Virus record (IMG/VR): IMGVR_UViG_3300020577_013187
Coordinates: 1 to 64,000 of that record
Reading direction: 5' to 3' (one strand)
From: a virus
Taxonomy: Duplodnaviria; Caudoviricetes
DNA length: 64,000 nucleotides
In this document: positions 2,792 through 39,457 of the stretch, in pieces
Layout: each line of letters starts with the position of its first letter
Position numbering within the stretch: the first letter of the stretch is position 1
The notes under the pieces: generated by a model
The model's input: only the letters and a program-made list of their open reading frames with translations
Databases searched by the model: none
What the model was told of the DNA's origin: nothing
Program-made: the position numbers and the translations under genes

Positions 2792-3094
2792 TTATTCCTT
2801 AACGGGAATATTTTGATTTTCAACTTCCCTCTCTGTAGGCTTACAATTTTTAGGATCAAATTTCTTGTTAAGATATTTTTTGAATCCATAAAGACTAAAA
2901 CTAGGTCCCCATAAAAACAATAAAACTGAAGAGTCTATTTGTCTAATCTTTAAGTTGTGTTCACCTATTTGAACTGACTCAAATAAACTAATGGTAATCA
3001 AAAATAAGCCATAAAAAAAAGAAATCCATGCAAAGGTATAGGTTCCTGACCGTTCGCCTTTAGAATCCTTTAAAAACATATTAGACTCCATCAT
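2792..3094 (-). CDS. Small two-TM membrane protein (holin-like)
   Basis: Two hydrophobic segments, charged C-terminus, last gene of the late operon. Confidence 0.55.
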   Translation of the reverse strand: MMESNMFLKDSKGERSGTYTFAWISFFYGLFLITISLFESVQIGEHNLKIRQIDSSVLLFLWGPSFSLYGFKKYLNKKFDPKNCKPTEREVENQNIPVKE

Positions 3095-3921
3095 TTAGTC
3101 TTAGATCTACCCCTTTTCTTTTTAATTTTCTCAACAGGGCTTTGATCACTTGAAATAGAATTTTCTTCACCATTTGTTAGTTCCTCATCTTTAGTAATAC
3201 TATTTGACATATCTTCACGAAGAGTATTACTATCAGGTTGAATAAAACCAGTTGTTATAATTTGATCTTCCCCTTTGTAGGAAATAGGCTCATAGATCTT
3301 GTAATTTTCAGGAATTTTAATGACAATAGGATTGTCATTGGCATATTTTACAGCACTATCTAATGCTTCTTGAGTTACCTCAAGTTTTACAAAATTGCCA
3401 TTTTCATCAGGGACTTTACAATAAAGAGCCTCTTGCTCAACTTCTTTTATACCCAAAGCATCTTTTAACTTTTTAGTAATGACTGGTTTATCAATCTTAT
3501 TTTCAGTCAAATAATTAAGTGACTCTTGATAGAAATAGTTAATATTTTTTTCTGCCAAAGCTTTATTGAGGTAAAAATTTGACTTATTGAATTGCTCAAA
3601 ATCTTCAGCTGCTAAAGCAAAATCAATCTTATGCCTTAGTCTTTTAATAGTTTTTTGTTTTAGAATTGAAAAAGGCATCAATATAGTTTCCCACTCTTGA
3701 TCATATTTTAGATTTTCAATCTTACAATCACCATCAAAATAAAGTTTACCAAAAGGCTCACCATTTTTTAGAATTTTTAAATCGAAAATACTACAAATGA
3801 TATATTCATACTGTTTAAGATTTTCAGGGATTAGATAATCATTAGGATTTATATTAAAATCTTTTGATAATATTTCTACAATTGCTGTATGATCTTCTTT
3901 TTTATAAACTCTACATTTCAT
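3091..3921 (-). CDS. Hypothetical protein
   Basis: 276-aa ORF tightly packed in the operon; acidic region then basic tail KKKRGRSKTK. Confidence 0.75.
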   Translation of the reverse strand: MKCRVYKKEDHTAIVEILSKDFNINPNDYLIPENLKQYEYIICSIFDLKILKNGEPFGKLYFDGDCKIENLKYDQEWETILMPFSILKQKTIKRLRHKIDFALAAEDFEQFNKSNFYLNKALAEKNINYFYQESLNYLTENKIDKPVITKKLKDALGIKEVEQEALYCKVPDENGNFVKLEVTQEALDSAVKYANDNPIVIKIPENYKIYEPISYKGEDQIITTGFIQPDSNTLREDMSNSITKDEELTNGEENSISSDQSPVEKIKKKRGRSKTK

Positions 3922-27295: not shown

Positions 27296-28069
27296 TTATT
27301 TTATTTGAAGAAGATTTTTTATCATATCAACTGTTTTTTGACTGATATATTGATCGACATTAATAGAAGAATACATGATAGAATTTACGTCATCAGAATG
27401 GTTTAGATCTAAACAATGTCCAAGTTCATGAGCATACATAGTCCACATATATTTAGTTGATTCACTCACGTCAATTTTACATTGCATTTTGTCATTTTTA
27501 AATCTCACATTTGAATAGGCGCCAAAATAACCTGATTCATCTTCTTTGGGTATAACTAAAGCTTTTCTCATACAAAAAGCTATATTAATTTCTTTTTCAT
27601 TATCAATAACAAATATTTCTTTGCCTAAAGCAAAGTTCCAATAAGAAATTGCCTTTTTTATTTCTTCAATAACACGCTCATCATCAATATTTTTAGTCTG
27701 AAGAGTAATTTGAGAAAGATTAGAATAAAGTCTTTTAGAAGCAGCTGCGTCCTGAAAAGCTGTATAGCTTAAATGTTCATTTTCAAAATTAATTACTTCC
27801 ATCTTAAGCGGTTCAGCAGTCACTTTATCATATCGATCATAGTCGATTTTAACAGTTTGTTTTTGCACTGTACAAAAATTAAGATAATCCGCTTCATCAC
27901 AAGTAAAAAAAGTTTCATCGTTATCAACTAAAGGCATTTCTTTAGGATCAACTTTAGGCTCTTCACATTGAATTTTTAAATCTAAATTAGAAGATTGTTT
28001 ACGCTCGTCTTGAGTACAAGCACCAATGGAGATGAGTAGAAGAGAAGCTAAAAGAATTTTTGTTTTCAT
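27296..28069 (-). CDS. Lipoprotein with matrixin (M10/metzincin) zinc metalloprotease domain
   Basis: Signal peptide ending ISIGAC; HELGHCLDLNH zinc motif; SIMY Met-turn. Confidence 0.85.
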   Translation of the reverse strand: MKTKILLASLLLISIGACTQDERKQSSNLDLKIQCEEPKVDPKEMPLVDNDETFFTCDEADYLNFCTVQKQTVKIDYDRYDKVTAEPLKMEVINFENEHLSYTAFQDAAASKRLYSNLSQITLQTKNIDDERVIEEIKKAISYWNFALGKEIFVIDNEKEINIAFCMRKALVIPKEDESGYFGAYSNVRFKNDKMQCKIDVSESTKYMWTMYAHELGHCLDLNHSDDVNSIMYSSINVDQYISQKTVDMIKNLLQIK

Positions 28070-29819: not shown

Positions 29820-30650
29820 TTATTTACCACCAAAACGCTTATTTAATTCACCATTAACAATATCTCTTACACTAGGATTGCTGATTTTATTGGTTGCTTC
29901 ATATTCCATAACAATTAGGCCATCAATAGTATTAGATTTTTGAAGATCTAAAAGAACATCGAGCACTTGAGATTTTCTTAAACCTTCAACTTTACCACCT
30001 GAAGTTGTACTATTTTCAGATTTCTCAATAACTTCAGTTTGATTTAAAAGTGCCTTAGGATCTCTAGCAGGGCTTTTTCGAAGAGTCCCAATATCACCTT
30101 TAAGTTGAACAATTTCAGCACTAAGTCCTTTAACTACATCAACAAGACTAGAGACTGACTTATAGAGAGGGTTAGCCTGAGCTTTTTTAAGCTCTTCTTT
30201 TTCTTGAGCTTCTTTTTTAGCTTTAACAAGAATCTCATAATCTTCCTGAGAAACTTCAAATGACTTTTTCATATCATCTTTACCATTCTTTTTATCATCT
30301 TCTTTATCATCATCATCATCATCTTCTTTATCTTTTTTATCTTTAGCTTTTTTGGCCTTAGATTTATCATCTTCATCTTCGTCACCATCTTCAGATTTAC
30401 AATCTTTCTTCTTCTTCATACTTTCCATGTCTTGATCTTTCTTATCTTTATTTTTAATAACATCACCACCACCATTAGACTCTAAGCTAATATCAGCTCC
30501 AGCACTGGCAGCAGTGCCAATTTCATCAAAAGATTTCTTCATATCATCTTGACTTTCATTTGATTTTTGCATACTATTTTTAACCTCTTTAAAAGCATTA
30601 GTAATTAGATTATCGACTTCTTCATAAAGTTTTAAATTTTCAGTTGACAT
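29820..30650 (-). CDS. Capsid scaffolding protein (putative)
   Basis: Immediately upstream of MCP; D/K-rich low complexity, coiled coil, repeated KS motifs. Confidence 0.7.
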   Translation of the reverse strand: MSTENLKLYEEVDNLITNAFKEVKNSMQKSNESQDDMKKSFDEIGTAASAGADISLESNGGGDVIKNKDKKDQDMESMKKKKDCKSEDGDEDEDDKSKAKKAKDKKDKEDDDDDDKEDDKKNGKDDMKKSFEVSQEDYEILVKAKKEAQEKEELKKAQANPLYKSVSSLVDVVKGLSAEIVQLKGDIGTLRKSPARDPKALLNQTEVIEKSENSTTSGGKVEGLRKSQVLDVLLDLQKSNTIDGLIVMEYEATNKISNPSVRDIVNGELNKRFGGK

Positions 30651-31568: not shown

Positions 31569-33047
31569 TTAGAATGCTTTATATCTTAAAGTTCCTCTAA
31601 TGCTTCTACCAGTTTGATTTTGATTAGCAGCATTCATAGCAGTTTCATTATTAGGAACTGCACTCATATAATAGAAATTGACATTTCTACTATTAGAGGC
31701 TATCAATGGAGTAACAACAGTACTAATATCGCCTGTATTAGCAGCTTCACCTGAACCATAAAAACCAGTAGCAGTAGCGGCTGTTTTTGAATAAGGTGTT
31801 ACTAAAGCAAGTCCAACAGCACCAGCACCAGCAGTGCCACCAGCAACATTAACAAAATTCCAGTTAAGAGTTACAAAACCAGCTAAATCAACCATATATT
31901 CAAAAACATTAATAGAAGTATATGTAGGAGCAGTACCACCAGAAGCTACAAAAAATGAACCAGCAGTTGCACCATTTTGACCAGTAGCCATATTATACGT
32001 ACGACTACCAAAAATATCATGACATGCTTGATTTCCTATGCCACCTAAAAAAGCAAAGGTCCAGTCATCAGCTGCAGTTTTATTTAATCTAATAGCTCCA
32101 ATGGTAAAACATGAGCTATTGGCAAATGTTGCTATTTGATTTGTAGTTGTCCAAAGAATAACATTACTTTGACTTTGAGAACTTGGAGGAACATCTTTAT
32201 AGCCAATATTAGTACTAGCTCCAGTTGTAGTCGCAGCAGGATCTCGTGATAGACCTAAAATAGGGGTAGAGCCATTATAAATTAACTTAATAGCAAAAGG
32301 TAAATCATTCCAAGCAACTCCAGTACCTGTAGCAACACCAAAACTAGTACCGCCACCACCATTAAACCAACTATCAGCACTGGTCGAATCTTGAATAACA
32401 CAATTCGTAGCAGCAGTAAAAGTAGCACTTAAATATCCACCACCTGAAGGATTTGGCCATCTAAACCAAACAGGATTGGTAGATGATGGAGTATTTCCAT
32501 TATGATCTTTTAAAGAAAGAACACCTGAAGATAGGGTGAGGGTACCATTAGTAGAAAAATTTGCAGCTTGAGTAGGAGAATATAATCCAGTTACACTGAC
32601 ACCATTTTGATCATTTAGAATAACACCACTAGAATCTGGAAAAGTATAATTTCTATTTCCAGTTAATCCAGGAGTGGTAAAACTAGCAGAATTTCCACCT
32701 GTACTATTAAGAAGAAGCGTACCAAAAACACTAGCTCCATTGGTATCAACTTGAAATTTATTACTGCTTGCAATAAAATTTCTTATATAGGTAGAGCCAT
32801 CACTTATAAGATAAGTAGTACCACCAGTATCAAAATTTAACTTATTTGTTCCAACAACTAAAGGAGTGCTATTTAATACAAGACCGCCAGTTTGATCTAA
32901 AGTAATAACATCATTGCCACCCACTTGAAAAATCATTTTACCAGTAGATTCTCTTAAGCTAGTGGTCTGTCCATCATTCAAACTAATTTTTTTAGTAGTA
33001 GGAACTCTAACCGTTCCTTGTAATCTTGCATCACCATTAATATCCAT
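31569..33047 (-). CDS. Fibre-like virion protein
   Basis: Gly/Ser/Thr-rich; LTGNRNYTFPDSSG repeat related to the 1329-aa fibre. Confidence 0.7.
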   Translation of the reverse strand: MDINGDARLQGTVRVPTTKKISLNDGQTTSLRESTGKMIFQVGGNDVITLDQTGGLVLNSTPLVVGTNKLNFDTGGTTYLISDGSTYIRNFIASSNKFQVDTNGASVFGTLLLNSTGGNSASFTTPGLTGNRNYTFPDSSGVILNDQNGVSVTGLYSPTQAANFSTNGTLTLSSGVLSLKDHNGNTPSSTNPVWFRWPNPSGGGYLSATFTAATNCVIQDSTSADSWFNGGGGTSFGVATGTGVAWNDLPFAIKLIYNGSTPILGLSRDPAATTTGASTNIGYKDVPPSSQSQSNVILWTTTNQIATFANSSCFTIGAIRLNKTAADDWTFAFLGGIGNQACHDIFGSRTYNMATGQNGATAGSFFVASGGTAPTYTSINVFEYMVDLAGFVTLNWNFVNVAGGTAGAGAVGLALVTPYSKTAATATGFYGSGEAANTGDISTVVTPLIASNSRNVNFYYMSAVPNNETAMNAANQNQTGRSIRGTLRYKAF

Positions 33048-33159: not shown

Positions 33160-33390
33160 TTATTTTCCTAATTCGATATTTTGGTTTCTAATCTTTATCC
33201 AATCAAGCACCTCTTGAATTTTTTTCAAAATCATTGCATTTTCTTTTTTTTCATTACTTAAATTTTCTTTAGCAATCTGTTGAGAACACCAAATAAACAC
33301 TTCATCAATACAACAACCATTAATGCCGTTTTTTTCAGGATCCCCTTCTTGTAATTTGATATTTATAAAATCTTCCATTTTATCCCCCAT
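33160..33390 (-). CDS. Tad1-like anti-defence sponge protein (divergent; probable start at 33378)
   Basis: IKLQEGDPEKNGINGCCIDEV...KENAMILKKIQEVLDWIKIR follows the Tad1 pattern IxFQxG...G...DLL...RENA.A...EEAL.W..R as recalled. Confidence 0.65.
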   Translation of the reverse strand: MGDKMEDFINIKLQEGDPEKNGINGCCIDEVFIWCSQQIAKENLSNEKKENAMILKKIQEVLDWIKIRNQNIELGK

Positions 33391-36300
33391 TAAAAATATG
33401 TGATCACCAAAACCATACCATCTCCACCCTTACCACCTGCCCCACTTATGATTTTAGTATTATTAGCAGATCCACCACCTCCACCACCACCGCCATATAA
33501 CCCACCAGCTCCACCATTCCCACCTGCAGAAGTTGTGTGGCCATAGGCACCACCTCCACCGCCACCACCGTTTGTATAAGTTGTTGCACCTGCAGTATAA
33601 CCAGCACCACCAGCAACACCGGGACCGGAACCTCCAGTAGCCCCAGAGTTATCTCCATAATAGCTTAATGTCCCACCTGCACCGCCTAGATAGCTAACAC
33701 TTGATCCATCAGTACTACCACCCCCTCCACCCCCTGAACCACCTAAAACAGCTGTGCCCCCTGGTTGACCAGCAAATGGTCCTGATAATCCACCATCTCC
33801 ACCATTATATTGTCCAGCCCCTCCAGTAGGCGTTGCTGGACTTCCCATGTTACCCCCTGCTCCTGCAGGGCCACCATTTGCTTTTAGATAGCTACCAAAA
33901 CTGGAAACCCCTCCTGACACACCTGGGTTTCCATCTGTAAATGTTGTAGTCTGACCAGCTCCCCCTGCTCCCCCAACTCCTACCGTAACAGTCACTGTTG
34001 AAGTTAGCCCAGCTGCATTAAAAACTTCTTCTGAGCTAGCACCGCCAGCGCCCCCACTACCTCCTGAATAAGTTGGCGTACCTCCTAAACGACCGCTACC
34101 ACCTCCACCACCACCGCCTATAGCTCTTACTCTAACTAATTTTGCACCAGCTGGTTTTGTCCAGGTACCGCTTGAAGTAAAGGCTTGCACATCTACCGAT
34201 ATTCCTAAAGTTCCAGAAACATCAGGTAGTGTATAGGTTCTGGTAGTAGCTGTAGAGATACCAGATAACTGAAATTTTGCCTGCTTTGTATTATCACCAT
34301 CATCCTGAAGAGTAAGATTAGTATCTTGAATAGTGATGATGTTTGTATTATTGAGTGTTTTATTAGTTAAAGTCTGGGTATTCGTATCTAAAACAACAAC
34401 ACCAGAAGCATTAGGGATGGTTAAAGTTCTGGTAGTAGCTGTAGAGATACCAGATAACTGAAACTGTAATTGTTTAGTAGCATCGCCGTCGTCTTGAAGT
34501 GTAAAAAGATTATCAGCTGTTGTAATAGTGGCTTTATACGTTCCAACAGTAACAGTACCCAATCGAGTAATATTGTCTTGAATGGTATTGGGTAGGGTGG
34601 TTAAAACTTCAACATTTCCTGTACCAGCTGTATTTCTACCTAAAACTGAAGCAGTAGCAATAGTTTGAAATTTGGCCAATGTAACCACATTATTAGCAAT
34701 AGTAGTTGACAATGAGCTACCAGCTGTGGTTACATCACCAGTCAAAGCAGGAAATTGACCAGCTTGAAGAGTACCAGTAACACCATTAGTTAAATTAACT
34801 TGGGCCCAAACAGGATTGTTATTTGTTCCTGTATTAGATAAATATCTTGTAGCATTAGTATCTTTTGTTAAGGCTGATATGGTATTGGTAGCAGAACCAT
34901 AGAGTAAATCACCTTGGGCAATAGAAGTTAGACCAGTTCCCCCTTTAGTAACTGCTATTGTTGTAGCATTCCAAGTTCCTGTTCCAATAGTTCCTAAAGT
35001 AGTGATATTGGCAGAGCCTGCCCAAGTACTTAAAGCAGTATTTTCAACATTATCTAAAGATAATAGAGTTTTTACAGCACTAGGAGTTAAAACTTCTACT
35101 GAACCAGTTCCAGCTGTAGTTCTTCCTAGTATACTATTAGTTGTAATATTTTGAATTTTAGCAAAAGTGACTGCTTGATTAGCTATAGTAGCAGCAAAAG
35201 ATCCAGTTCCTGAACCAGTAACATCACCAGTCAAAGTAATAGTTTGATCACCAGTATTTGTTCCTGAACTAGTTCCTGAAAATGTACCATTTTGAGTTGC
35301 TAAAGTACCTAAACCTAAAGTTGTTCTAGCTGTAGTATTATCAGGATCATCAATTAAAGATCTACCAAAACTAGTCAAGGTTGTAGTAGAAGCAGTTCCT
35401 GCACCTGTGTAATAAGGTAAAGCATCAGCAGCTGAAGTAGTAGTAGCTAAAGCTGATAACTCAGTATCTAAAGGCTGATATCCTGATAAATCAGAAGTTA
35501 AAGCTATCGTACCATTTGCATTAGGTAAAGTATAAGTTCTAGTGGTAGCTGTACTAATTCCAGAAGCCTGGAACTTAGCCTGTTTAGTGTTATCTCCATC
35601 ATCTTGAATGGTGAAATTAGTATCGAGTAAGGTAACATTATTAGTATTTCCTATTGTCTTATTCGTTAAAGTTTGAGCACCTGTTAAGGTTGTAACAATA
35701 CTCGTGTCAATTGATAGAGTATTACCAGTTTTTAATATACCCGTACCAGCAACAATTGACCCAGCTCCTGAAAATTGAGTAAAAGTAAGATTAGTTGAAC
35801 CTAAATTAATAGGATCAGGAGTAATAAGAACATAGCCATTATTTAAATTAGTACTACCCTCTTCGATAAAAGTATATAAACCAGAAGTTACTTTAAAAGA
35901 AGCATCTGCATCTGTAGCTCTAGTCCAAGAACCAGTTGAAACAACATAAATACCATTTTGGCTCGCAGTGCTTTGATCTTTGACTAAGACTCTATTTCCT
36001 GTAACTGTAGCTACACCATCAATGGTTTGTTCGCCTGATAGAGTAATATTAGCAGTAGTAGCAGCTCTACATGAATTTTTAAAATCTAATCCTAAAGCAA
36101 AAGCATCAACATAAGCTTTATTAGCTGCATCACTGGAACCAGTAGGATTTGACAATCCTGTTATTGTTCCACCTGTGATATTGACATTGTTTGCATTTTG
36201 TGTTGCAATAGTTCCTAAGCCAAGGTTTGTTCTAGCACCTGAAGCAGTAGTAGAACCTGTTCCACCTTTATTCAAAGCTAAAGCTGAACCACCTAAGTTA

Positions 36301-37379
36301 TTGATATCAATACCTGATTCAATAACATCGGCAATGATAGTATTGGCAACATCATTATAGGTAAAATTGATAGTAGCAGTATCAGTTAAAATACTGCCTA
36401 CGGCATCTTGAGCTTCTTCATCAGTATAAGTAGAAGTATTAACCCAAGAAGGATTAGTTCCATCAGTTCCTAAAACTCTTCCATTATTTCCTGTTTGACT
36501 AGGTAAAAGATTATTTAAGGCAGCACTAGCTGTAGTAGCATTAGTACCACCTTTATTTACAGGTAGAGTACCAGTGACATTTGTACCAGATAAAGTTATA
36601 GGATTGGCTGTAATTTGTTGACCAGCTAGAGAAAGATAATTCTCACCTACTAAAGTAACAGGATTATGAAGATCAGAAGTTAAGGCTATAGTTCCTGAAG
36701 AATCTTGAAAGGTAAAAGTTCTACTAGTTCCAGTAGAGATACCTGAAACTTGAAAGAAAATTTGCTTAGTGGGGTCACCATTATCTTGAATAGTAAAACT
36801 ATTGTCTAAAATAGCAATAGAGCCACCAGTAATGGCGACATTGCTCCCATTTTGGACAGCCATAGTTCCTAAACCAAGAGTAGTCCTTTGGGCTGCATTA
36901 TCAACATCATCTAAAATAGCTCGACCTGCAGCAGTACAAACTATTTCTTCAACAGGACCAGCACCAGCTGTCACTCGACCTAAAATTCTATCAGTAGCTG
37001 AGACATTCTGAATTTTAGAATAAGTTATTGAACTATTTTTTACATCAGCAGTTATGGCAGGAGTGGCATCATCATAGGTGAAATCTATAGTTGCTGTATC
37101 TACTAAAATACTTCCTACAGCATCTTGGGCCTCTTCATCAGTATATCCACCACCTGACCCAGTCACCCAACTAACATTAGTACCATCTGTACTAAGATAT
37201 TTTCCACTATTGCCCATTTGACTAGGCAATAAGTTATTTCTAGCACTTTGAGCCGTTGTTGCACTAGTCCCTCCTTTATCTGTTGTTAAAGGAGTACCGG
37301 CTAATGAATTAATATCAATCGTAGTAGGATCTACTGATCCCCCCCCACTACCATGACCAGAAGTCTTTCCATCACTCAT
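33390..37379 (-). CDS. Long fibre protein with internal repeats and glycine-rich C-terminal domain
   Basis: Four QDDGDxTKQxxFQxSGISTATTRT repeats, two YTDEEAQDAVG repeats, KGGTG repeats, VRAIGGGGGGGSG C-terminal domain. Confidence 0.85.
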   Translation of the reverse strand: MSDGKTSGHGSGGGSVDPTTIDINSLAGTPLTTDKGGTSATTAQSARNNLLPSQMGNSGKYLSTDGTNVSWVTGSGGGYTDEEAQDAVGSILVDTATIDFTYDDATPAITADVKNSSITYSKIQNVSATDRILGRVTAGAGPVEEIVCTAAGRAILDDVDNAAQRTTLGLGTMAVQNGSNVAITGGSIAILDNSFTIQDNGDPTKQIFFQVSGISTGTSRTFTFQDSSGTIALTSDLHNPVTLVGENYLSLAGQQITANPITLSGTNVTGTLPVNKGGTNATTASAALNNLLPSQTGNNGRVLGTDGTNPSWVNTSTYTDEEAQDAVGSILTDTATINFTYNDVANTIIADVIESGIDINNLGGSALALNKGGTGSTTASGARTNLGLGTIATQNANNVNITGGTITGLSNPTGSSDAANKAYVDAFALGLDFKNSCRAATTANITLSGEQTIDGVATVTGNRVLVKDQSTASQNGIYVVSTGSWTRATDADASFKVTSGLYTFIEEGSTNLNNGYVLITPDPINLGSTNLTFTQFSGAGSIVAGTGILKTGNTLSIDTSIVTTLTGAQTLTNKTIGNTNNVTLLDTNFTIQDDGDNTKQAKFQASGISTATTRTYTLPNANGTIALTSDLSGYQPLDTELSALATTTSAADALPYYTGAGTASTTTLTSFGRSLIDDPDNTTARTTLGLGTLATQNGTFSGTSSGTNTGDQTITLTGDVTGSGTGSFAATIANQAVTFAKIQNITTNSILGRTTAGTGSVEVLTPSAVKTLLSLDNVENTALSTWAGSANITTLGTIGTGTWNATTIAVTKGGTGLTSIAQGDLLYGSATNTISALTKDTNATRYLSNTGTNNNPVWAQVNLTNGVTGTLQAGQFPALTGDVTTAGSSLSTTIANNVVTLAKFQTIATASVLGRNTAGTGNVEVLTTLPNTIQDNITRLGTVTVGTYKATITTADNLFTLQDDGDATKQLQFQLSGISTATTRTLTIPNASGVVVLDTNTQTLTNKTLNNTNIITIQDTNLTLQDDGDNTKQAKFQLSGISTATTRTYTLPDVSGTLGISVDVQAFTSSGTWTKPAGAKLVRVRAIGGGGGGGSGRLGGTPTYSGGSGGAGGASSEEVFNAAGLTSTVTVTVGVGGAGGAGQTTTFTDGNPGVSGGVSSFGSYLKANGGPAGAGGNMGSPATPTGGAGQYNGGDGGLSGPFAGQPGGTAVLGGSGGGGGGSTDGSSVSYLGGAGGTLSYYGDNSGATGGSGPGVAGGAGYTAGATTYTNGGGGGGGAYGHTTSAGGNGGAGGLYGGGGGGGGSANNTKIISGAGGKGGDGMVLVITYF
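34237..34463. repeat. Exact 38-bp direct repeat (34237-34274 and 34426-34463)
   Basis: gttctggtagtagctgtagagataccagataactgaaa occurs twice, 189 bp apart. Confidence 0.95.
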
Positions 37380-38194: not shown

Positions 38195-39457
38195 TTAATC
38201 TTTTTTAGAATCTTCTTTTTTCTTCTTTTTCTTAGACTCTAAAGATTCACTTTGCATTGAAGCTCCACCAGTTAATTGACTAGGAGCTTGATTATAATTT
38301 CCAGCCTCTAAGGCCTTTTTAACACTTAAACATTCATCAATCTCATCATAGATGCTCATGACATTGTCATAAATTAGATGAATAGCTACAGTTTCAAAAA
38401 AGTTTTGAATCTTTTCTAAGTTAACTCTTATTTGCTCTTCGTTATTTGCTTCTAATGAAATCTTTAAAGCATGGCCTAGTTGAGCTAGATAGAGATAGTT
38501 TGAGTCATCATTATAGACTCTTATGATAAAATCAACCACTCTATAACCAACTGACTTCATACTAGAATATGATTTTAAAATCTTTTCACAGTTATTTAGA
38601 GTTAAAAGACTTCTTTTCCCTAATGCCCTAGCTTCATTTGCATTTAAAGGAATGGACTCACCCCATGATTTAGCTATTTTAGCATAAGCTGTAGGGGTAC
38701 CATCTGAATTAAATAACACAGGAATATGATCTCTATTAAAATATTTTACTAAAACTTTTGCTTTTCTTAAAATAGGCTTTAAGCTATTAATTTTATTTGC
38801 TTCTTCTTCTCTAGATTTTTTATAAGAGGAAGTAAGACTCAATGAAGCAGAAAAGTTTTTAGCTTGCTTAGACAGATCAAGAGCTTTTTGAACAGATTGA
38901 TTGACAATATTCATCACCTGATCTTTTGTATAAGAATCTTGTTTCAATACTTCATTCTCAGCTGTTAAAGATTTTACTAGTTCAGCATAAGTATGGGGAT
39001 TGACTGGATCTACTGTTACAGCTACTTTTTCAACTCTAGCTCCAACAATTTCTCTTCCATTAACACCACATCTTTTTAAGACTTTTCCTTCAATGCTAAA
39101 ACCCACTCTTCTTTTATCTTCGTTCTTTAATGAAGTTAAAATATTGTAAATTCCCTTAGCCTTATCAGTATTTTTAAACAGATATCCTTCGACAAAAAGA
39201 CCATCTTCATTGATTGAAGCATTATCAATTTTACCAATAATGTTTTCTGGTCCTGGTTTATGATCCCAATTAAAGAGACCTCGACCATCAGTCAAAGGCG
39301 TAATATCTAGACTATCCTGACGAATAATTTCTCCCTGTAGATCCATATGATCAGTAGACGCAATACCCTTAATACGCCACTCATCATTCTTTGCTTTTTC
39401 TAAATCTACAGGGACAAAGAAAGAAAAATTCTTTAAATTTTCTACTTGCTCAGTCAT
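38195..39457 (-). CDS. Prohead maturation protease with C-terminal extension
   Basis: IKGIASTDHMDLQGEII, FNWDH, GFSIEG, AVTVDPVNPHT. Confidence 0.9.
   Translation of the reverse strand: MTEQVENLKNFSFFVPVDLEKAKNDEWRIKGIASTDHMDLQGEIIRQDSLDITPLTDGRGLFNWDHKPGPENIIGKIDNASINEDGLFVEGYLFKNTDKAKGIYNILTSLKNEDKRRVGFSIEGKVLKRCGVNGREIVGARVEKVAVTVDPVNPHTYAELVKSLTAENEVLKQDSYTKDQVMNIVNQSVQKALDLSKQAKNFSASLSLTSSYKKSREEEANKINSLKPILRKAKVLVKYFNRDHIPVLFNSDGTPTAYAKIAKSWGESIPLNANEARALGKRSLLTLNNCEKILKSYSSMKSVGYRVVDFIIRVYNDDSNYLYLAQLGHALKISLEANNEEQIRVNLEKIQNFFETVAIHLIYDNVMSIYDEIDECLSVKKALEAGNYNQAPSQLTGGASMQSESLESKKKKKKEDSKKD

Follow-up and report, generated by a model that had tools for sequence, protein, structure and literature searches.

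A reduced Tad1-family protein encoded behind a glycine-rich fibre gene in the head module of a tailed phage

Introduction

The locus analysed here raises the question of whether a very short open reading frame directly behind a phage fibre gene encodes a genuine relative of Tad1, the sponge that sequesters signals of bacterial immunity, and, if so, what such a protein could do among late structural genes. The window, which is the whole stretch of DNA analysed, comprises the initial 64 kb of a 72,232-bp phage genome of 31.5% G+C, for which no megablast relative was found and whose major capsid protein is ~33% identical to the capsids of SPO1-like Bacillus phage and of Bacteroides phages. An earlier note had read the frame as a divergent Tad1-like sponge, truncated at both ends and coupled to the fibre gene, with an altered ligand specificity or a late, virion-linked action. 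The two strings that it quoted, IKLQEGDPEKNGINGCCIDEV ... KENAMILKKIQEVLDWIKIR, are present exactly in the translation of ORF 33160..33390 (minus strand).

Results and Discussion

The small gene and its translational start

The junction between the fibre gene and the small gene displays the following features.
33390..37379, minus strand: fibre, 1329 aa, in which shaft units are repeated and the C-terminal domain is rich in glycine; upstream member of the cassette
33405..34169, minus strand: Gly_rich_2 (PF21722) domain, fibre residues 1071-1325; the part conserved with partner genes elsewhere
33383..33388, minus strand: ribosome-binding site GGGGGA, 4 nt 5' of the M5 ATG and directly 3' of the fibre stop
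33160..33378, minus strand: minimal gene of the Tad1 family, with 72 codons from M5 and a stop codon
33160-33390, minus strand: the same frame read from an alternative upstream ATG at 33390, 76 aa

The first ATG of the 76-aa frame overlaps the fibre stop codon TAA by one base, while the M5 ATG, at 33378, follows the GGGGGA site; the proposed coupling to the fibre gene is thus confirmed. The small gene starts 8 nt past the end of the gene for the 1329-aa glycine-rich fibre. Its true start is most likely M5, leading to a 72-aa product, because a ribosome-binding site precedes this codon and the homologues P0002, P0003 and P0007, all of 72 aa, begin at the equivalent Met. Residues are therefore numbered here in the 72-aa form.

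The gene displays a dN/dS of 0.06-0.16 against relatives with dS of 0.8-1.5 and is thus real and under purifying selection. Its closest homologues, referred to below as the clade, keep a length of 68-77 aa and their ribosome-binding sites across divergent phages. The extreme shortness, the AT-rich composition and the truncation at both ends relative to Tad1 might suggest a decaying remnant or a spurious ORF. This reading is effectively refuted by the dN/dS values, which hold at dS up to 1.5, and by the conserved length and ribosome-binding sites; the confident structure prediction described below also stands against it, and we consider its probability negligible. Only one copy is present, as neither a second copy nor a full-length Tad1 was found elsewhere in the phage genome, and about 186,000 bacterial genomes contained no prophage copies. 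Scans for a promoter or terminator of its own near the small ORF gave nothing above shuffled expectation.

The fibre gene ends in TAT TTT TAA (33385-33398, minus strand), with the small ORF open from the T-run onwards in the -1 frame, such that a slip at this run would join the fibre and the small protein. The arrangement is probably due to chance, because homologous loci do not keep this frame and their small ORF lies in frame -1, +1 or 0 relative to the fibre. Recoding into a fusion was rejected on this ground and because one junction carries a double stop and each homologous junction has its own GGAG-type site, with the small gene 8-27 nt past the fibre stop. At L018:1303-1515 and L019:3897-4109 the small ORF is in frame with the fibre, separated by TAG and three sense codons, and read-through of this TAG would yield a fibre-Tad1 fusion.

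The fibre gene lies in the head module

The neighbouring genes define the genomic setting.
38195..39457, minus strand: prohead maturation protease (phrog_1028, E 3.8e-41); upstream boundary of the module
31569..33047, minus strand: 492-aa Gly/Thr/Asn-rich protein with no family match; outside the conserved pair
29820-30650: acidic, scaffold-like gene of 276 aa
28315..29781, minus strand: major head protein (phrog_752, E 2.1e-63)

On the minus strand the order is prohead protease, a 224-aa gene, the 1329-aa fibre, the small ORF, the 492-aa fibre-like gene, genes of 104 and 168 aa, the acidic scaffold-like gene and the major head protein, with the sheath beyond. The fibre and the small ORF thus have the prohead protease on one side and the scaffold and major-capsid genes on the other, which places them in the head module rather than the tail module. 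The late, fibre-coupled position suggested earlier accordingly holds, with PHROG matches placing the small gene in the head module. The fibre itself matches tail fibre, head decoration and virion structural PHROG families, and the DUF5907 repeat and Gly_rich_2 of Pfam.

The 492-aa protein is probably a second fibre, and its gene is absent from the homologous loci L006, L012, L019 and L021. Two large fibre-like genes (33390-37379 and 31569-33047) therefore lie within the head module, and, as the first also matches head-decoration families, they may encode head fibres instead of tail fibres. Two further genes deserve mention. The gene after the major capsid (27296-28069, minus strand) has homologues in loci L004 and L008 that match Peptidase_M10, and would represent an unusual metalloprotease for a head module. 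In the fibre/head block of L008, a 162-aa gene (L008:7512-7997) is 36% like part of a 276-aa window gene (3091-3921) that sits near the baseplate/tail end of the phage, which suggests that fibre-related pieces have been shuffled.

A member of the Tad1 lineage reduced to its core

Sequence and structure comparisons converge on Tad1. Used as a single phmmer query against all PDB chains, the small protein gave one match, CmTad1 8kbb (E 0.0018), with query residues 8-70 aligned to residues 56-119 of the 132-residue chain. A profile of seven clade members matched CmTad1 at E 7.6e-6, its six best PDB matches all being Tad1. Similarly, hhalign of the clade against tailed Tad1-family relatives, which retain the C-terminal tail, gave a probability of 99.6% (E 1.5e-23), and the tailed set matches CmTad1 at 1.7e-26 and CbTad1 at 4e-18. 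An exhaustive phmmer search of 1.8 billion representatives returned 21 proteins, among which those outside the clade display the core IxIKxQxGPIKExGVNGCQIDDV...CRENxLAITKLxEALxWLxxRxxxRxxRGVEGT after variable N-termini. Family profiles give a graded picture: phrog_2428 scores 1.8e-53 for Bcp1_140, a full-length protein of a Bacillus phage, and gives weak matches to the small protein (1e-3) and to P0003 (1.2e-5). The Pfam family PF24729 (Acb2_Tad1_hairpin; gathering threshold 27 bits) has no match in P0001, P0002 and P0003, is present in the tailed relatives P0009, P0011 and P0014, and is carried by the nearest ESM Atlas clusters; the named best matches in BFVD include Acb2/Tad1 hairpin proteins. 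A match to Pfam DUF7745 at E 0.02, under the cut-off, was treated as noise.

The AF2 model reaches a pLDDT of 89.6 with an alignment of 25 sequences that contains family members and so biases it towards the Tad1 fold; a single-sequence run (pLDDT 61) was uninformative. The model consists of a short strand and loop followed by helices 24-41 and 45-69, such that strand β4, the β4-α1 loop and the two long C-terminal helices are predicted to be present, as in Tad1. In Foldseek searches of the PDB the best 20 matches were all Tad1 chains, CmTad1 aligning over 66 columns with a TMq of 0.81-0.85 and an rmsd of 1.0-1.5 Å, at E-values of only ~2e-3 because the query is so short. VIA-align ranked Tad1 entries 1-8 (Z 7.0-8.1), only modestly above generic hairpins. 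The suggested likeness to Tad1 is therefore upheld by phmmer, profile, hhalign and Foldseek comparisons as well as by the predicted fold.

The small protein is thus a genuine member of the Tad1 lineage reduced to its core, in which β4, a GxNGC loop and a two-helix hairpin remain. When set against Tad1 (CmTad1, PDB 8KBB-8KBD; CbTad1, 7UAV/7UAW; phrog_2428; PF24729), β4, the GxNG loop and both long helices are homologous, and the EN motif, W60 and the equivalents of N92 and R109 are shared, as appear to be most residues of the surface that in Tad1 serves hexamer contacts and trinucleotides; both proteins are small and phage-encoded. In contrast, the small protein is about half the size, lacks the β1-β3 sheet and the RxxRGVEG lid, and has KKEN...ILKK where Tad1 has CREN...AITK. 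Its gene is also late and lies behind a fibre gene, whereas Tad1 is found among early or accessory genes. It is a homologue of Tad1, yet not a canonical member, because the full β-sheet and the lid were looked for and are absent, and the gcADPR pocket residues are for the most part lost.

Truncation at the N-terminus is not peculiar to the clade. Brochothrix phage ADU4 (UKM96432, 79 aa), Bacillus phage PBC5 (PBC5_093, 82 aa) and metagenomes contain proteins of 79-90 aa made up of β4, a hairpin and a tail, P0011 and P0017 being further examples of short tailed proteins, and a short form is thus common in the Tad1 family. These short tailed proteins retain the RxxRGVEG lid and the CREN/AITK motifs that the clade lacks, match phrog_2428 at 1e-23 to 1e-27 and are located in early or accessory regions; no published assay of them was found. 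The clade is therefore set apart by loss of the lid, changed motifs and genomic setting. Among other Tad1-type proteins, P0018 and P0027 (182 and 191 aa) are fusions in which the N-terminal domain bears the motif YYVxYxDGYxSxSPAxAFExGY, and the remaining N-terminal extensions are mutually unrelated. The Tad1 family thus looks like a C-terminal module joined to a wide range of heads.

The gcADPR pocket is largely lost

In Tad1, a β1-β4 sheet and two long helices form a head-to-tail dimer in which the gcADPR pocket is walled by the β2-β3 loop, the β4-α1 loop, the C-terminal tail and the α1-α2 loop of the partner protomer, and residues 116-122 of CbTad1 shut as a lid over the ligand (10.1101/2022.05.03.490397). 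The small protein begins at the equivalent of CmTad1 chain residue 56, with the fibre stop directly upstream, so that strands β1-3, including the β2-β3 pocket loop (H29 in CbTad1), are missing. Similarly, RNQNIELGK takes the place of the RxxRGVEG tail, and within the clade the C-terminus ends in RNQNIELGK, SRNRE or RDQKVFSDMAK, all without a lid. The two truncations that had been described are thus both observed.

The gcADPR contacts of CbTad1 are H29, G55, R57, R78, F82, F87, N92, R109, R113, G120 and N122 (10.1101/2022.05.03.490397). Mapped through the phmmer and clade-profile alignments to Tad1, three of these 11 are kept and eight are lost, as follows.
CbTad1 G55: kept as G12 (backbone contact)
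CbTad1 N92: kept as N47 (adenine-reading)
CbTad1 R109: kept as R64 (stacking)
CbTad1 R57: replaced by P14
CbTad1 R78: replaced by Q34
CbTad1 F82: replaced by K37
CbTad1 F87: replaced by N42
CbTad1 H29, R113, G120 and N122: no counterpart, because strands β1-3 and the lid are absent

In CbTad1 the double mutants F82A/N92A and R109A/R113A lose binding of gcADPR and 2',3'-cGAMP (10.1101/2023.11.15.567273). As residues of this kind are lost from the pocket, canonical gcADPR binding by the small protein appears unlikely on the residue mapping. That the protein is an ordinary Tad1, active against type I Thoeris through continued sequestration of gcADPR (3'cADPR or 2'cADPR), could be argued from its family membership, from the retention of N47 and R64 and from the inhibition of Thoeris by all ten Tad1 homologues assayed (Leavitt et al.). 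The eight contacts without an equivalent, the behaviour of the double mutants and the absence of the ligand-sealing lid 116-122 all speak against this, and we consider it very unlikely. As for the altered ligand specificity proposed earlier, the residue mapping fits a change of ligand, with the trinucleotide and hexamer surface better kept than the gcADPR contacts, while the sponge function itself is a prediction.

The trinucleotide surface is partly conserved and carries a lysine cluster

On its three-fold axes the Tad1 hexamer has sites for two cyclic trinucleotides; R88 and T95, with C87, A91 and M92, form such a site in CmTad1, and the hexamer contacts are K96, Q98, E99, M102, W103 and K106 (10.1101/2023.11.15.567273). 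In the trinucleotide site of the small protein R88 corresponds to K45, T95 to K52, C87 to K44, A91 to A48 and M92 to M49, while in the hexamer interface K96 corresponds to K53, Q98 to Q55, E99 to E56, M102 to D59, W103 to W60 and K106 to I63. The surface of helix 2 thus displays six identical residues (A48, M49, K53, Q55, E56 and W60), and both phosphate ligands are now lysines. This results in a cluster of four lysines per protomer (K44, K45, K52 and K53) that is well conserved within the clade: K52 is invariant, and position 45 is Asp only in P0008, the most divergent member. The best-conserved clade positions are Q10, G12, D13, G18-C22, N39, E46-N47 and W60, which fall in the loop lining the pocket and at the beginning of helix 2. 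Conservation of this kind would fit retained handling of a ligand better than a fold kept merely for packing.

We therefore favour, with a probability of about 0.45, a nucleotide sponge that is expressed late, forms homo-oligomers and has changed its ligand. The protein would assemble through its hairpin into dimers, probably as a trimer of dimers, like Tad1, and would act as a sponge for small-molecule nucleotide signals. Its ligand range would have to differ from that of canonical Tad1, because the gcADPR/cyclic-dinucleotide pocket is without its β2-β3 loop, its C-terminal lid and the majority of its contact side chains. The most likely ligand would be a CBASS or type III CRISPR signal of the cyclic tri- or oligonucleotide type, since the three-fold site on helix 2 appears to be the best-retained surface and now presents a conserved lysine cluster. 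Translation of the gene would directly follow that of the glycine-rich fibre gene, at a late stage of infection and from the head-module transcript, and the two genes would be inherited together. Tad1 ancestry, the conservation of both ligand-lining and oligomer surfaces and the lysine cluster at the trinucleotide site support this reading. In addition, the tailed relatives P0011 and P0014 lie among methyltransferase, radical-SAM, ribonucleotide-reductase and UPRTase genes, and such methyltransferase and nucleotide-metabolism neighbourhoods are usual for anti-defence genes.

Several observations weigh against a sponge. The loss of the lid and of eight of 11 gcADPR contacts may have left a fold that is unable to hold a ligand. 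The net charge is about -3, the clade has no PF24729 match, and within it A48/M49 vary and P0008 carries Asp at position 45. Late expression is also unusual for a sponge.

A two-gene cassette shared between unrelated phages

In all nine independent contexts the small gene lies 8-27 nt past a gene whose product ends in Gly_rich_2. The pair is found in loci L004/L005, L006/L007, L008-L011, L012/L013, L014 and L018/L019. In an all-against-all BLASTP, L008 proved to be genuinely related to the window phage, with a 74% identical capsid. In contrast, no product of L006, L012/L013 and L018/L019 other than the fibre and the small protein resembles the 72-kb genome, while the capsid, adaptor, terminase and portal genes differ from those of the window phage. 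Because the pair alone is shared while the other genes differ, comparison of these loci points to a two-gene cassette that moves between unrelated backbones, at least two in number. Fibre length varies from 351 to 1329 aa through the N-terminal part, and the C-terminal domain and the small gene remain together. When the search was started blind from the fibre side, the homologue P0034 was again followed directly by a small gene. An obligate linkage of a small Tad1 variant to a glycine-rich fibre gene was previously unreported.

The linkage has limits on the fibre side. The Gly_rich_2 domains of partner-bearing fibres are 48-72% identical to one another, whereas Gly_rich_2 proteins at 45% identity or less, among them fibres at 35-45% (P0037, found in dozens of contigs, P0045, P0057 and L020) have no Tad1-like ORF anywhere in their loci. 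The divergence of the two partners is also uncorrelated: in L008 the domain, at 72% identity, is the closest of all and the small protein, at 39%, the most divergent, and in L006 the values are 49% and 64%.

The movement of the cassette between unrelated phages makes a fibre-linked role a serious rival to the sponge. The Tad1 core could now serve the glycine-rich fibre tip as a partner, be it assembly chaperone, adaptor or retained subunit, with no sponge function. A fibre C-terminal domain transferred together with a coupled small downstream gene is the textbook pattern of a receptor-binding tip and its chaperone; in P2 H/G, Mu S/U, lambda Stf/Tfa and T4 gp37/gp38 the fibre C-terminus and the small downstream gene are swapped jointly while N-termini vary. 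By analogy with these modules, which have the same genetic architecture, a small gene that always adjoins one fibre subfamily and moves with the fibre C-terminus, as in the present cassette, would be a classic fibre-tip and chaperone signature and would count against a sponge. The adjacency in nine of nine contexts, the isolated sharing of the pair in L006, L012 and L019, the variable fibre N-termini, the recovery of a small gene by blind search from the fibre side and the loss of the lid and most pocket residues all fit such a partner. However, sequence and fold searches revealed no relation to any known fibre chaperone family (Tfa, gp38 and similar), and the family of the small protein otherwise consists of ligand sponges. 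Its best-conserved residues line the Tad1 ligand sites and not the core alone, it does not co-vary with the fibre domain, and adjacency alone could reflect hitch-hiking. The partner-less fibres indicate that glycine-rich fibres can dispense with the small gene, which, together with the missing co-variation, favours the sponge. On balance, a role as fibre partner appears rather unlikely, although it has to be taken seriously.

The two functions might also be combined in a co-adapted cassette of fibre tip and minimal Tad1, acting as trigger plus antidote or as a fibre-borne sponge, a possibility that we judge doubtful. In the first version a defence of the Thoeris/CBASS type could sense the glycine-rich domain and the linked mini-sponge could mop up the resulting signal, which would explain the joint exchange of both genes between unrelated phages. 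In the second the mini-Tad1 could dock on the fibre or head and be delivered with the virion. Linked suppression of a fibre-triggered signal is mechanistically plausible because side tail-fibre alleles, with a downstream gene, set type II Thoeris sensitivity in Pseudomonas phages (10.64898/2026.06.04.730250).

Virion-linked relatives of Tad1

PhiKZ gp184 (PDB 8Y6V chain I) sets a precedent for late, virion-linked action, as its Tad1-type domain is encoded and expressed with the head proteins. Its C-terminal 80 residues form a full Tad1-type domain with tail (profile E 3e-14). The consulted portion of the capsid structure paper presents gp184 as a minor protein of the inner capsid surface that is cleaved by the head protease and does not name it Tad1 (PMC11297242); recent papers do so, and describe a Tad1 that is injected at the next infection (10.1101/2025.11.23.690004; PMC13282480). 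A second case of a virion-associated Tad1 may be found in Bastille-like Bacillus phages, whose proteins Bc431v3 orf166 (JX094431.1 81560-81751) and Bcp1_140 (L003:2845-3225) are free-standing 126-aa members of the Tad1 family. They are annotated as 'putative structural protein' because orf166 was detected in virions by mass spectrometry, with 39% coverage in purified virions (PMC3601020). Late expression is thus no objection to a sponge in principle, given the Tad1 domain of gp184 and the detection in Bc431v3 virions.

By the same token the small protein could be a virion-borne sponge, made late so as to enter the virion, either in the head or on the fibre, and to reach the next host with it, like the Tad1 of PhiKZ. 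The two precedents and the position in the head module beside the protease are consistent with this. In contrast to gp184, which has 230 aa, an N-terminal capsid-binding part, a full tail and reported packaging and injection, the 72-aa protein has no capsid-targeting extension of that kind, and virion proteomics also picks up abundant contaminants. A virion-borne sponge is considered improbable.

Relation to Acb2 and significance

The anti-CBASS protein Acb2 (anti-CBASS 2; T4 Vs.4 type) resembles the small protein in size and helical hairpin, and Pfam groups its hairpin with that of Tad1. Acb2 is a hexamer with two three-fold sites for cyclic trinucleotides (10.1101/2023.11.15.567273). Membership of the Acb2 family was rejected, as PDB phmmer and the clade profile gave no detectable sequence match and Acb2 was absent among the fold matches listed.

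A virion-linked Tad1 was already known from PhiKZ gp184; the minimal, tail-less variant is new. The small protein would be either a sponge with a changed target, which we prefer, or a sponge fold re-used for the fibre. Sponge proteins are the main route for discovering new bacterial immune signals, and a mini-Tad1 could report a signal not yet assigned. A core of 68-77 residues that keeps the oligomerisation and trinucleotide surfaces while lacking the gcADPR pocket would define the minimal functional unit shared by Tad1 and Acb2. Its pairing with one fibre-tip domain in unrelated phages, an obligate association unreported for any sponge, would mean either that an immune trigger and its suppressor are exchanged as a cassette or that a sponge fold has been recruited into virion assembly.
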